This document shows positions 4,966 to 26,724 of a stretch of 39,329 nucleotides of DNA, one piece after another. The DNA is from a phage. The notes under the pieces were generated by a model. The model saw nothing but the letters and a program-made list of their open reading frames with translations. It was not told the DNA's origin and searched no databases. Where the stretch lies: sequence record PZ402303.1; one strand, written 5' to 3'. The translations under genes were made by a program, and so were the position numbers. The stretch's first letter is position 1. Each line of letters starts with the position of its first letter.

Positions 4966-5008
4966 TAACTCAAGGTCGCACTGAAAGCGTGGCCTTTATG
5001 ATATTCAC
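4966..5008 (+). promoter_or_regulatory. RNase III-type processing hairpin (R0.3-like)
   Basis: aactcaaggtcgcactgaaagcgtggcctttatgatattcac. Confidence 0.6.
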
Positions 5009-9666: not shown

Positions 9667-9689
9667 TAATACGACTCACTATTGGGAGA
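9667..9689 (+). promoter_or_regulatory. Phage RNAP promoter (phi1.05/phi1.1A-like)
   Basis: TAATACGACTCACTATT-GGGAGA followed by 5' hairpin GGGAGACCC..GGGTTTCCC. Confidence 0.8.
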
Positions 9690-9750: not shown

Positions 9751-10308
9751 ATGTTTACTTTCATCACTTCAGTAGGCGCTCTCGTAGCAACCATTCTTGC
9801 AGCAACATACTACAACCGTTCAAAGGTATTTCTCACCAAGCTAATCAAAGAAGAGAAGAACTCTCACGCACTCAAAGAGAGACTTGAAGATGGGTGGCTA
9901 GAGAGGCAGGAACTAGCTGGTCGAATCCGTACTTTAGAGTTCGAACAACAATATGACATGTCGAACCAACGAGAACTCATTGAGCGTCTACGCGCTGAGG
10001 CAATGGAGTACCGCAAGGAACTTAAAGAGGCAAAGAGTACCATCCGTGAGTACACATACAGTGACATCACGTCTATCAAGTTTACTGCTCACATCCCGGA
10101 TGCTGGATGGAAGCGCACTGAGTTCAAGCTAGGCATAGGGTCTTGCGGCAAAGAGGTTACGTGTTTGCACTGGAAAGAACAGTCGGACCGCTACCTGCTG
10201 ACACAGACGTGCACTGATGGTGAGCGCAAAGAGTTCACCTATTATAAGAAAGACGTAGCTGGTCGCATTGAGATTGCACGTAAGGTTGCAGACAATACGA
10301 CTCACTAA
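9751..10308 (+). CDS. Hypothetical membrane-anchored coiled-coil protein, 185 aa (positional analogue of T3-lineage gene 1.05)
   Basis: ATG at 9751 with RBS AAGAGG; N-terminal hydrophobic helix (FTFITSVGALVATILAATYY), charged coiled-coil segment, C-terminal domain with 3 Cys; the track ORF start at 9682 is a TTG inside the promoter. Confidence 0.7.
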   Translation: MFTFITSVGALVATILAATYYNRSKVFLTKLIKEEKNSHALKERLEDGWLERQELAGRIRTLEFEQQYDMSNQRELIERLRAEAMEYRKELKEAKSTIREYTYSDITSIKFTAHIPDAGWKRTEFKLGIGSCGKEVTCLHWKEQSDRYLLTQTCTDGERKEFTYYKKDVAGRIEIARKVADNTTH

Positions 10309-22889: not shown

Positions 22890-24497
22890 ATGGCAAGCTC
22901 ACAGAAACGTGAAGGCTTCGCGGAGAATGGTGCCAAGGCGGTGTATGACGCATTGAAGAACGACCGGAACTCCTATGAGACCCGTGCGGAAAACTGTGCG
23001 AAGTACACCATCCCTTCGTTGTTCCCTAAAGACTCCGACAACGCCTCTACTGACTACACCACTCCGTGGCAAGCAGTTGGCGCTCGTGGCTTGAACAACT
23101 TGGCCTCTAAGCTCATGCTCGCTCTGTTCCCTATGCAGACGTGGATGAAGCTGACCATCTCTGAGTTCGAAGCGAAACAATTGGTTGCACAGCCAGCCGA
23201 ACTAGCGAAGGTCGAAGAAGGTCTCTCAATGGTCGAGCGAATCTTGATGAACTACATCGAGTCCAACTCGTACCGTGTGACACTCTTTGAGACCCTCAAG
23301 CAGTTGGTCGTTGCAGGTAACGCTCTGCTCTACATTCCTGAACCTGAAGGTGCTTACAATCCGATGAAGCTATACCGACTGTCTTCTTATGTTGTCCAAC
23401 GAGACGCATTCGGCACGGTGCTACAGATTGTAACCTTAGATAAGACTGCCTATGCAGCACTTCCAGAAGACGTTCGAAACTCTATGGACTCCGGTCAGGA
23501 ACATAAAGGCGACGAAATGATTGATGTGTACACTCACATTTATCTTGACGAAGAATCTGGTGAGTACCTCAAGTACGAAGAGATTGATGGTGTTGAAGTC
23601 GATGGTACAGATGCTTCTTATCCGGTGGACGCTTGTCCTTATATCCCGGTTCGCATGGTACGCATTGATGGAGAATCATATGGTCGTTCTTACTGTGAGG
23701 AATACTTAGGTGACTTACGGTCCCTTGAGAACCTCCAAGAAGCTATCGTTAAGATGTCAATGATTAGTGCTAAAGTTATTGGCTTGGTTAACCCGGCTGG
23801 TATCACACAGGTTCGTCGTTTGACCAAAGCACAGACTGGTGACTTCGTGTCTGGTCGTCCAGAAGACATCTCGTTCCTTCAGCTTGAAAAGGCCGCAGAC
23901 TTCTCTGTAGCGAAAGCTGTGAGTGAACAGATTGAGGGCCGACTGTCCTATGCCTTTATGTTGAACTCCGCTGTGCAACGCACTGGTGAGCGTGTGACTG
24001 CCGAAGAGATTCGATATGTTGCATCTGAACTCGAAGATACCCTTGGTGGTGTCTATTCGATTCTCTCACAGGAACTTCAGTTGCCAATGGTTCGTGTCCT
24101 GCTGAAGCAACTTCAAGCGACCAATCAGATTCCTGAGCTACCGAAAGAGGCCGTTGAGCCTACTATCAGTACCGGGATGGAAGCATTGGGTCGTGGTCAA
24201 GACCTCGATAAGCTGGAGCGTTGTATTGCTGCTTGGTCTGCTCTTGCTCCTATGCAGAATGACCCGGACATCAACATTGCGACCATTAAGTTGCGCATTG
24301 CGAACGCTATCGGCATCGACACTTCTGGTATCCTCAAGACACCTGAAGAGAAACAACAGGAGATGGCTGAGGCTGCTCAAGGAACTGCACTGGAGAACGC
24401 TGCTGCATCTGCTGGTGCTGGTGCTGGTGCACTTGCTACTGCAAGCCCTGAGAACATGCAAGCGGCTGCTGAACAGGCTGGAATGGTTCCAAATTAA
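22890..24497 (+). CDS. 8: Portal / head-tail connector protein (gp8), 535 aa
   Basis: Size and position as T7 gp8; RBS AAGGAGG. Confidence 0.97.
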   Translation: MASSQKREGFAENGAKAVYDALKNDRNSYETRAENCAKYTIPSLFPKDSDNASTDYTTPWQAVGARGLNNLASKLMLALFPMQTWMKLTISEFEAKQLVAQPAELAKVEEGLSMVERILMNYIESNSYRVTLFETLKQLVVAGNALLYIPEPEGAYNPMKLYRLSSYVVQRDAFGTVLQIVTLDKTAYAALPEDVRNSMDSGQEHKGDEMIDVYTHIYLDEESGEYLKYEEIDGVEVDGTDASYPVDACPYIPVRMVRIDGESYGRSYCEEYLGDLRSLENLQEAIVKMSMISAKVIGLVNPAGITQVRRLTKAQTGDFVSGRPEDISFLQLEKAADFSVAKAVSEQIEGRLSYAFMLNSAVQRTGERVTAEEIRYVASELEDTLGGVYSILSQELQLPMVRVLLKQLQATNQIPELPKEAVEPTISTGMEALGRGQDLDKLERCIAAWSALAPMQNDPDINIATIKLRIANAIGIDTSGILKTPEEKQQEMAEAAQGTALENAAASAGAGAGALATASPENMQAAAEQAGMVPN

Positions 24498-24517
24498 TAC
24501 GACTCACTAATGGGAGA
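24495..24517 (+). promoter_or_regulatory. Phage RNAP promoter (phi9-like)
   Basis: TAATACGACTCACTAAT-GGGAGA with hairpin GGGAGAGACAATACGTCCTCCC. Confidence 0.8.
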
Positions 24518-24573
24518 GACAATACGTCCTCCCTTTGAGTTCAACTTTATGAAATCTAAAGGAGATAACAATT

Positions 24574-25485
24574 ATGGCTGGTGAATCTAACGCTGACGTA
24601 TACGCATCTTTTGGTGTGAACTCTGCGGTTGTCGGTGGGTCTACTCCTACTGACCACGAACAGGCTATGCTTGAACTCGACGTTGCTGCCCGTGATGGTG
24701 ATGACGCAATTGAGTTAGTAAGTAACGATGACCCGTATGGTAATCCAGACCCGTTCGGTGAAGAAGACGAAGACCGCACTGAGATTCGTATCTCCACTGA
24801 TGGTGAACCTGAAGTAACCGAAGAAGGTGAAATCGACTATGAAGGAACCGAAGATGAAGGCTCCGAAGAGTTTGAACCAGTTGGTGACGTTCCAGATGAA
24901 CTGAACGAAGCCTCAAGTCAACTCGAAGAGCACGAAGCTGGTTTCGAAGAGATGGTCAATCAGGCTGCTGAACGTGGTCTGTCTGAAGAAACCATCGTGC
25001 GTATCCAACAGGAATACGGAGAGGACGGTCTGTCTGAAGAGTCTTACGAAGAGTTAGCCAAAGCTGGTTACTCCAAGTCGTTTGTTGACTCCTACATCCG
25101 TGGTCAGGAAGCACTGGTAGAACAGTATGTTCAGTCCGTTATGGAGTACGCTGGCGGTGGAGCACAGTTCCAAGCAATCTACAATCACCTCGAAGTGTCC
25201 AACCCGGATGCTGCCGAGTCTCTGATTAGTGCCTTGGAGAATCGTGACCTCGCAACAGTTAAGGCTATCGTTAATCTCGCTGGTGCAAGCCGTGAGAAGA
25301 CTTTCGGTAAACCTGCTGCCCGTAGCATTTCTAAACGTGCCGTACCTGCTGCACCTGTACGAGCCAAACAGTCTGGCTTTGAGTCACAGGCTGAGATGAT
25401 TGCTGCAATGTCCGACCCTCGCTACCGTTCGGACTCTAAGTTCCGTGCTGAAGTTGAGCGTAAGATGATGTACAGTAACTTCTAA
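24574..25485 (+). CDS. 9: Capsid assembly scaffolding protein (gp9), 303 aa
   Basis: Highly acidic, position between portal and capsid genes; RBS AAAGGAG. Confidence 0.9.
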   Translation: MAGESNADVYASFGVNSAVVGGSTPTDHEQAMLELDVAARDGDDAIELVSNDDPYGNPDPFGEEDEDRTEIRISTDGEPEVTEEGEIDYEGTEDEGSEEFEPVGDVPDELNEASSQLEEHEAGFEEMVNQAAERGLSEETIVRIQQEYGEDGLSEESYEELAKAGYSKSFVDSYIRGQEALVEQYVQSVMEYAGGGAQFQAIYNHLEVSNPDAAESLISALENRDLATVKAIVNLAGASREKTFGKPAARSISKRAVPAAPVRAKQSGFESQAEMIAAMSDPRYRSDSKFRAEVERKMMYSNF

Positions 25486-25488
25486 AAT

Positions 25489-25511
25489 TAATACGACTCA
25501 CTATTGGGAGA
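25489..25511 (+). promoter_or_regulatory. Phage RNAP promoter (phi10-like, exact consensus)
   Basis: TAATACGACTCACTATT-GGGAGA. Confidence 0.85.
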
Positions 25512-25596
25512 GAGATGGAATCCCACGATTGGAGGTCACACAGACCATTAAGTTGCTGTGACATCTGGCTTCCGGGCTTGTCGTGGGAATGCTCCC
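25506..25596 (+). promoter_or_regulatory. Extended structured element in the gene 10 5' leader
   Basis: Nested complementarity: GGGAG(25506-10)/CTCCC(25592-96); TCCCACGA(25521-28)/TCGTGGGA(25581-88); GTCACA(25535-40)/TGTGAC(25557-62); leader is 175 nt. Confidence 0.35.
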
Positions 25597-25680
25597 TTTG
25601 AGTGATACACAATGAGAACCAACTCGTTTCAAGTAGTACCTCACACATTTAAACTTTAAATTAACAGAAGGAGATTCAAC

Positions 25681-26724
25681 ATGGCTAAGATGAATGGTGG
25701 TCAGCAAATTGGTAAAGACCAAGGTAAAGGTATGTCTGCTGGTGATAAACTGGCTCTGTTCCTGAAAGTGTTCGGTGGTGAAGTTCTGACAGCGTTTACT
25801 CGTACCTCTGTTACCATGAACAAACACCTCGTGCGTTCCATTCAGTCCGGTAAGTCCGCGCAGTTCCCTGTGCTGGGTCGTACCAAAGCTGCTTACCTGC
25901 AACCGGGTGAGAACCTCGATGACAAACGTAAAGACATGAAGCACACTGAGCGTACCATTAACATTGATGGTCTGCTGACTGCTGACGTTCTGATTTACGA
26001 CATCGAAGACGCAATGAACCACTATGACGTGCGCTCCGAGTATACCGCACAGTTGGGTGAATCTCTTGCGATGGCTGCTGATGGCGCGGTTCTGGCTGAA
26101 ATGGCTAAACTGTGTAACCTGCCGTCTGCGTCTGATGAGAACATCGCTGGTCTCGGTAAGGCTCATGTACTGGAAGTTGGCAAGCAGTCTGAGCTTCGGG
26201 GAGACCAAGTTAAGCTGGGTCAGGCTATCATCGCACAGTTAACTCTGGCTCGTGCCAAGCTGACTGGCAACTATGTTCCGGCTGCTGACCGTGTGTTCTA
26301 CACCACTCCAGACAACTACTCTGCTATTCTGGCTGCTCTGATGCCTAACGCTGCAAACTATCAGGCTCTGATTGACCCGTCTACTGGCTCTATCCGCAAC
26401 GTTATGGGCTTCGAAGTTATTGAGGTTCCGCATCTGACTGCTGGTGGTGCTGGCGAAGACCGTCCAGAAGAGGGTGCAAATCCGACTGGTCAGAAACATG
26501 CGTTCCCTGAGACTTCCTCTGGTGACACCCGTGTTGCTCTGGACAACGTTGTCGGTCTGTTCAATCACCGCTCTGCCGTTGGTACTGTTAAGCTGAAAGA
26601 TATGGCACTGGAACGTGCTCGTCGAGCTAACTTCCAAGCAGACCAGATTATCGCTAAGTACGCTATGGGTCACGGTGGTCTGCGCCCTGAAGCATGTGGT
26701 GCGCTGGTTTTCAACAAGTCTTAA
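25681..26724 (+). CDS. 10A: Major capsid protein (gp10A), 347 aa
   Basis: High similarity to recalled T7 gp10A (GDKLALFLKVFGGEVLTAF.RTSVT...HMVRSI.SGKSAQFPVLGRT.AAYL.PGENLDDKRKD); RBS AAGGAG. Confidence 0.97.
   Translation: MAKMNGGQQIGKDQGKGMSAGDKLALFLKVFGGEVLTAFTRTSVTMNKHLVRSIQSGKSAQFPVLGRTKAAYLQPGENLDDKRKDMKHTERTINIDGLLTADVLIYDIEDAMNHYDVRSEYTAQLGESLAMAADGAVLAEMAKLCNLPSASDENIAGLGKAHVLEVGKQSELRGDQVKLGQAIIAQLTLARAKLTGNYVPAADRVFYTTPDNYSAILAALMPNAANYQALIDPSTGSIRNVMGFEVIEVPHLTAGGAGEDRPEEGANPTGQKHAFPETSSGDTRVALDNVVGLFNHRSAVGTVKLKDMALERARRANFQADQIIAKYAMGHGGLRPEACGALVFNKS

Follow-up and report, generated by a model that had tools for sequence, protein, structure and literature searches.

Why should the mRNA of the major capsid gene in a T7-like phage begin with an unusually long and apparently structured leader? 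T7-like phages are among the best-studied viruses, and the leader transcribed from their phi10 promoter is present in countless expression vectors. The DNA analysed here, a stretch of 39,329 nt (sequence record PZ402303.1; hereafter the window), belongs to a BA14-like Berlinvirus: the 215 nt around the leader match Escherichia phage nasanit at 100% and phage BA14 (Berlinvirus, Studiervirinae) at 97.7% identity. Gene 10 is located at 25.7 kb in the window and in nasanit versus 21.9 kb in BA14, and the window is thus considered a permuted or differently started assembly of a genome of ~39-40 kb. The leader features mapped below are all on the + strand.

The scaffold gene 9 ends at position 25485, and gene 10A for the major capsid protein, an ORF that is annotated in BA14 and nasanit, extends from 25681 to 26724. 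The phi10 late promoter (TAATACGACTCACTATTGGGAGA, 25489-25511, -17 to +6) shows 0 mismatches to the late-promoter consensus of the window itself, which has 10 sites in the window and 0 in 100 shuffled sequences. Because of this match, and because the same site is annotated as phi10 in BA14, G25506 is the probable transcription start (+1); the late-mRNA start GGGAGA is present there. With the gene 10 ATG at 25681 the leader comprises 175 nt, as an earlier note on this DNA had stated, versus 63 nt in T7 (phi10 at 22904, gene 10 at 22967), and the T3 leader has 141 nt. According to the same note, the other late transcripts carry a simple hairpin of ~20 nt; this holds for the promoters at 9667, 13170, 24495 and 37288 and is less clear for the others, most other late leaders in the window opening with a plain ~20-nt hairpin of the GGGAG...CUCCC type. 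The hairpin of the phi9 leader (GGGAGAGACAATACGTCCTCCC, followed by TTTGAGT; 24512-24540) is very similar to the short hairpin that Berlin and YpP-G phages have at phi10, a likeness that fits shuffling of leaders between late promoters. Directly beside +1, the number of repeats n in the sequence GGGA(GA)n (25509-25514) is 2 for Klebsiella phages, 3 for the window and for BA14, and 5 for Pectobacterium phage PP74, which suggests slippage at this promoter-proximal sequence.

The first 91 nt of the transcript (25506-25596) constitute a closed RNA domain at the 5' end of the gene 10 mRNA, for which the name type-B leader cassette was coined here and which was delimited by minimum free energy (MFE) folding, a covariance model match and covariation. 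Folding of 25506-25600 with RNAfold yielded a closed and nested structure of -36.1 kcal/mol (z = -2.53, 3 of 200 shuffled sequences being as good), as the earlier note had anticipated. The folding of the whole 175-nt leader is not exceptional (z -1.12), and the structure is therefore confined to the first 91 nt. All three complementarities proposed before were found, and two of them are part of the MFE structure. The first, P1, pairs GGGAG (25506-25510) with CUCCC (25592-25596) and is the closing stem common to all cassette types; in silico, the 5'-terminal nucleotides are paired without a single-stranded overhang, and the pairing probability of nt 1-5 is 0.95 in leaders of the window type. 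The second, proposed for 25521-25528 with 25581-25588 (98.7-98.8% paired in relatives, seven pairs with compensatory changes), belongs to P2 (UCCCACGAU/GUCGUGGGA), in which 25521-25529 pairs with 25580-25588 through 9 pairs, 98.8% paired and with 7 compensatory double changes. The third, GTCACA/TGTGAC, had to be given up: in relatives its pairing amounts to only 61%, with three of the six base pairs disrupted in 13-15 of the 19 sequences. Its register is replaced by two helices, P3 (UGGAGGUCA/UGGCUUCCG) and P4 (CACAG/CUGUG). The 5' strand of P3 (UGGAGGUC, 25530-25537) pairs with 25567-25574 in 8 pairs, of which 5 are invariant and 1 is compensatory (100% paired), and that of the apical hairpin P4 (25539-25543) pairs with 25556-25560, compensatory changes being seen in 4 of 6 aligned pairs. 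Together P2, P3 and P4 amount to ~23 bp, interrupted by two 5-nt 3' bulges. The opposite strand folds less well (-28.1 kcal/mol, z -1.65, versus -36.1 kcal/mol), and the three G.U pairs kept in P3 would turn into A.C mismatches there. The structure is thus a property of the + strand transcript.

Homologues of the type-B cassette were found in BA14-like phages of Escherichia, Salmonella, Enterobacter, Pectobacterium and Serratia and, at ~65-75% identity, in many Klebsiella Przondovirus phages. The covariation alignment (A1) comprised 19 distinct sequences, from which RNAalifold recovered P1-P4 with compensatory changes in 13 of 26 pairs. Within P2-P4, standard pairs occupy 98.4% of the cells versus 28-52% when the partners are slid by 1-3 columns, double changes affect 12 pairs versus 1-6 in the slid controls, and the covariation score is 0.52 versus at most 0.15. 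Up to four pair types occur per position in P2, and, in contrast to the freely covarying P2 and P4, P3 is nearly invariant in sequence; GAUGGAA and UGC, two unpaired motifs, are likewise conserved. The cassette is also more conserved than the four-fold sites of the adjacent gene 10 (65-68% versus 50-58% and 86-97% versus 73-75%). A type-B covariance model matches 25508-25597 (E 5e-23) as the sole copy in the window, and in each phage genome it detects a single copy, located at phi10 throughout. The first 91 nt of the capsid mRNA are thus a real, evolutionarily conserved folded RNA. This bears out the suggestion of a small structured RNA on the most highly expressed late mRNA, the covariation showing a conserved fold on the transcribed strand.

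A further helix of 4 bp may form a pseudoknot between GAUG (25514-25517), located in the 10-nt internal loop, and CAUC (25562-25565), located in the bulge between P4 and P3. The two segments are complementary in all 19 sequences, and in Serratia phage Pila they read GACU/AGUC, a double compensatory change that two further IMG/VR contigs share. The covariation support comes down to a single evolutionary event. A full-length conformer in which this helix is forced is 8.8 kcal/mol worse than the MFE, and only for nascent transcripts of 68-76 nt is the helix part of the MFE structure. On the basis of these folding models, GAUG/CAUC may represent a tertiary contact or a co-transcriptional folding intermediate.

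Downstream of the cassette, a block that is common to Berlinvirus, Przondovirus and T3-like phages (25597-25643) marks the right boundary. It is 100% identical in Yersinia, Salmonella and Kluyvera phages without the cassette; the phages sharing it have different RNAP promoters. The block contains the hairpin HP2 (AAUGAG-N6-CUCGUU, a 6-bp stem of 25611-25616 and 25623-25628) with one compensatory A-U to U-A pair, which occurs in T3-type and 5OI88-type sequences, and the flanks ACAC and UUCAAGUAGUA are near-invariant. An upstream ORF of 15 codons (MRTNSFQVVPHTFKL, 25612-25659) has its AUG within HP2. Since this AUG is UUG in T3-type leaders and substitutions track base pairing, the ORF is probably not translated. 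The remainder of the leader is an ordinary gene 10 translation start region (25647-25680), composed of an A/U-rich tract and the Shine-Dalgarno sequence AAGGAG (25668-25673); within the tract, TAAACTTTA (25650-25658) differs by one mismatch from TTAACTTTA of T7 (compared by eye with the T7 leader in our locus set).

These features bear on the idea, raised in the earlier note as translational regulation, that the domain controls the translation of gene 10, or else encodes a peptide itself. The predicted accessibility of the Shine-Dalgarno sequence and the AUG is 0.47 in the native leader, 0.46 with a shuffled cassette and 0.50 without a cassette, so the accessibility of the ribosome-binding site (RBS) is unchanged by it. 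With respect to a peptide, the GGAG at the start of the transcript is followed by an ATG at +10, and some GenBank records annotate ORFs in the cassette. However, the + strand ORF from this ATG (25515) lacks the ATG in Pila, has 3 codons in D226 and elsewhere comprises 24-47 codons with unrelated sequences, and the - strand ORF annotated as a hypothetical protein in Pila and PZJ0206 differs in start and length among relatives. No ORF conserved in start, frame and length was found in the cassette among relatives on either strand, and the substitutions track base pairing rather than codons. A translational regulator or a small ORF is therefore regarded as very improbable.

Searches for known families were negative throughout. 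The Rfam scan proposed for this element gave no family match in Rfam 15, the sole chance match being on the opposite strand (E 2.3; 11.8 bits versus a gathering score of 298), and a scan of 15 loci with other cassette types gave no relevant match, ToxI-type antitoxins included. ARAGORN called 0 tRNA genes in the window, BLAST detected no relatives of the type-B cassette in E. coli genomes and plasmids, and no sigma-70 promoter or intrinsic terminator was predicted on either strand of 25300-25800. Searches of viral and genome contigs with the loose pattern GAGATGGAA-N-TGGNGGT gave chance matches only among the matches listed, and a metagenome scan gave mostly chance matches and a few real contigs of ~40 kb. 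Neither the type-B RNA nor the cassette slot introduced below is described in Rfam or in the searchable literature, T3/T7 papers in subscription journals of the 1980s excepted.

The surroundings of the cassette were surveyed in 80 IMG/VR loci and GenBank phages, anchored on the conserved downstream leader sequence. In all surveyed loci the leader has the order promoter, GGGAG, X, CUCCC, conserved block and RBS. In Yersinia phage YpP-G and in Berlin-like phages, X is a loop of 10 nt; YpP-G has only the 22-nt hairpin GGGAGAGACATCACGTTCTCCC where the window has the 91-nt domain. Elsewhere X consists of unrelated inserts of up to ~90 nt. Whole cassettes range from 22 to ~100 nt, and 73 loci yielded ~15 sequence types; the leader has matches in 603 phage records, of which just 79 extend over the cassette. 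In the loci sampled, cassette type and genomic backbone are uncoupled. In a comparison of the flanks (500 nt from gene 9 and gene 10), only 33% of the pairs with at least 98% identical flanks shared the cassette type, and some pairs with 99.8% identical flanks have unrelated cassettes; conversely, the cassettes of Pila and the window are 92.5% identical on flanks that are 68% identical. Type B is preceded by T7-like promoters in some phages and by two variants of K11-like promoters in others. It is thus one allele of a hypervariable leader slot and is exchanged horizontally between phages. As cassette type is uncoupled from the backbone and type B occurs under several promoters, the simplest history would be that recombination between the flanking conserved sequences, the promoter on the left and the block 25597-25643 on the right, exchanged the cassettes.

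The phi9 leader is a second slot of this kind: Klebsiella phages and T3 have a tRNA-like cassette at phi9, E. coli phage P483 has it at phi10, and the other late promoters in the loci sampled have short hairpins only. This cassette (GGGAGACACAUCCAGAUUGAGUGAGGUCUGGUCUGAAGGUUCGAGUCCUUCGUGUUUCC in the phi10 leader of P483, locus L037) is absent from the window. It consists of a 9-bp acceptor-like stem starting from +1, one hairpin arm and the canonical T-arm GAAGG-UUCGAGU-CCUUC, and the T3 version covaries (AAAGG-UUGGAGU-CCUUU). The Klebsiella-phage phi9 leader carrying it lies about 1.05 kb upstream of phi10. The tRNA-like cassette was detected in 276 phage records and 0 E. coli genomes and is not called by ARAGORN. 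Additionally, Klebsiella-phage loci (e.g. L009, L024 and L097) show another variable slot, downstream of the conserved block and ahead of the gene 10 RBS, with nested insertions of ~+41 and ~+88 nt; this slot and the 5' cassette type assort independently, and the window has the short form (25644-25667).

The inserts might be passengers, tolerated in the loop of a promoter-proximal palindrome only if they fold on themselves and let GGGAG/CUCCC close, so that the fold would be selected without a function of its own. This agrees with the structures of the other types, since every MFE closes on the 5' GGGAG and z is at most -2 in 11 of 16 cassette representatives; it also agrees with the freely varying lengths and with the variable (GA)n run beside +1, which suggests slippage-prone DNA. 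However, a passenger would not be expected to keep P3 almost invariant while P2 and P4 covary freely, to maintain the pseudoknot by a double compensatory change, to conserve the unpaired GAUGGAA and UGC or to be more conserved than neighbouring synonymous sites, and we consider this explanation improbable.

The irregular P2-P4 helix points to another possibility, namely that RNase III or another RNase cuts it, trimming the leader and releasing a small 5' RNA as at the T7 R sites; the earlier note had likewise mentioned a processing element. With its ~23 bp and two bulges the helix resembles the irregular hairpins of T7 RNase III sites, whose double helix spans about two turns; the likeness fits such a site without being diagnostic of it. 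At the coordinates that we take to be those of ten T7 RNase III sites, folding revealed AAGGUC...GGCCUU followed by (U/C)AUGA in 7 of 10. The corresponding motif AAGGTC...GGCCTT has 0 matches in 25506-25680 versus six elsewhere in the window. Moreover, T3 and BA14 have no annotated RNase III site between phi10 and gene 10, and most alternative cassettes are too short as RNase III substrates. Processing therefore appears just as improbable as a mere passenger. The six hairpins of the T7 RNase III-site type are located at 4972, 5507, 6949, 10333, 10849 and 17753, two of them directly downstream of promoters at 10293 and 10817.

In a third view, the cassette is an accessory module, a functional non-coding RNA on the strongest late transcript that acts in trans or after release. 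It might be a decoy, a sponge, an inhibitor or a variant escaping a host factor or an immune sensor of abundant phage RNA, and hypervariability would then result from diversifying or frequency-dependent selection. The ~15 unrelated types in one slot, their turnover on nearly identical flanks, the similar cassettes of Pila and the window on diverged flanks, the occurrence of one type under T7-like and K11-like promoters, the shared cassette of Klebsiella-phage phi9 and P483 phi10, and the sequence-invariant P3 and pseudoknot of type B are all in line with it. There are also precedents for phage RNAs in immunity, namely cabRNA (PMC10686824), Racrs (PMC10651486) and pseudo-ToxI (PMC3475682). On the other hand, no partner, target or released RNA species is known, the cassette has no similarity to Rfam families (ToxI-type antitoxins included), E. 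coli genomes or plasmids, a 22-nt hairpin suffices for many related phages, and phage genomes are mosaic anyway, so that exchange alone is no proof of selection. An accessory RNA is accordingly possible and, in our judgement, rather unlikely. A broader form of this view is slightly more doubtful still: the phi9 and phi10 leaders of Studiervirinae would be slots for exchangeable, self-folding accessory RNAs ('RNA morons') that are very highly expressed and diverse through host conflict, and not mere stabiliser hairpins. Their repertoire would include the 91-nt pseudoknotted type B and the tRNA-like cassette, and they could serve, e.g., to evade or block RNA-sensing immunity or RNases.

Closest to what is known of T7 is the reading that the cassette is an expanded mRNA stabiliser that sequesters the 5' end and makes an extra contact with a putative partner. 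By analogy with T7 we give it about an even chance of being correct. The extra ~85 nt are a discrete self-folding RNA domain inserted in the loop of the 5'-terminal GGGAG...CUCCC stem-loop of T7-group late mRNAs. P1-P4 and the 4-bp pseudoknot would keep the 5'-triphosphate end paired, and the downstream hairpin, the enhancer and the ribosome-binding site would be left untouched. Acting in cis, the cassette would protect the most abundant of the late mRNAs against decay that depends on the 5' end (RppH/RNase E), in the manner of the 21-nt T7 stem-loop, and the invariant, G.U-rich P3 together with the pseudoknot would provide an additional sequence-specific contact with the putative partner. A passage in PMC2254391, citing Mertens 1996, states that the 21-nt 5' stem-loop of T7 phi10 stabilises the gene 10 mRNA against RNase E. 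Since pairing of the 5' GGGAG is common to every allele, with p of at least 0.9 for nt 1-5 in most cassette types, and the T7 stem-loop is reported to stabilise its mRNA, the stabiliser is the best-supported reading, its function and the existence of a partner being what we infer from this parallel and from the conserved core.

Two results qualify the part played by the 5' end in this stabiliser. The type-B versions of Klebsiella phages have a P1 of just GGG/CCC, with a predicted 5'-end pairing probability of 0.18-0.56, so end sequestration cannot be the only selected property. When the interior of the cassette was shuffled, the 5' end was still largely paired (0.77 versus 0.85), and the test of 5'-end sequestration is therefore consistent with stabilisation and not discriminating. 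A pure stabiliser does not account for the near-invariant P3, the pseudoknot and the ~15 unrelated alleles that are kept and exchanged; the conserved core and the pseudoknot suggest an extra interaction beyond stabilisation.

A conserved pseudoknotted RNA of 91 nt that heads the capsid mRNA has been missed by annotation and by Rfam, and together with the hypervariable slot exchanged between genera it points to an unrecognised layer of RNA-level variation in the top-expressed phage transcripts. As pure mRNA stabilisers the cassettes would offer synthetic biology a natural collection of 5' stabilisers, and an action on host factors would make them a new class of phage accessory RNA.

Among known systems, the T7-group RNase III sites (e.g. 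R0.5, R1.1, R1.3) are likewise irregular hairpins of ~20 bp with asymmetric bulges in phage transcripts, but the window leader lacks AAGGUC...GGCCUU, which six other sites in the window have. The g10-L or epsilon translational enhancer of T7, reportedly described by Olins and Rangwala in 1989, has its counterpart in 25647-25680 of the window, where a similar A/U-rich tract with TAAACTTTA and AAGGAG is kept; the structured domain is located 50 nt further upstream, and no effect on the enhancer region is predicted. Like the cassette, cabRNA (PMC10686824), RNA anti-CRISPRs (PMC10651486) and pseudo-ToxI (PMC3475682) are non-coding, structured and phage-encoded, and their sequence variation matters in the conflict between phage and host (PMC10686824, PMC10651486, PMC3475682); the cassette differs from them in having no sequence or Rfam similarity and in being placed at the extreme 5' terminus of a late mRNA. 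The nearest counterpart is the T7 phi10 stem-loop (21 nt, 8 bp), which follows the same principle as the ompA 5' hairpin and which, like the window domain, has GGGAGA at +1 and a paired 5' end on the capsid mRNA. The window domain is a topological expansion of this stem-loop and may, by analogy, work like it. However, the T7-group stem-loops are simple short hairpins (~8 bp, ~21 nt), a feature that the domain does not share: it has 91 nt, four helices plus a pseudoknot and a conserved core, and it is one of many exchangeable alleles. As one of ~15 unrelated cassettes at the same spot, type B looks like more than the simple protective hairpin of T7.
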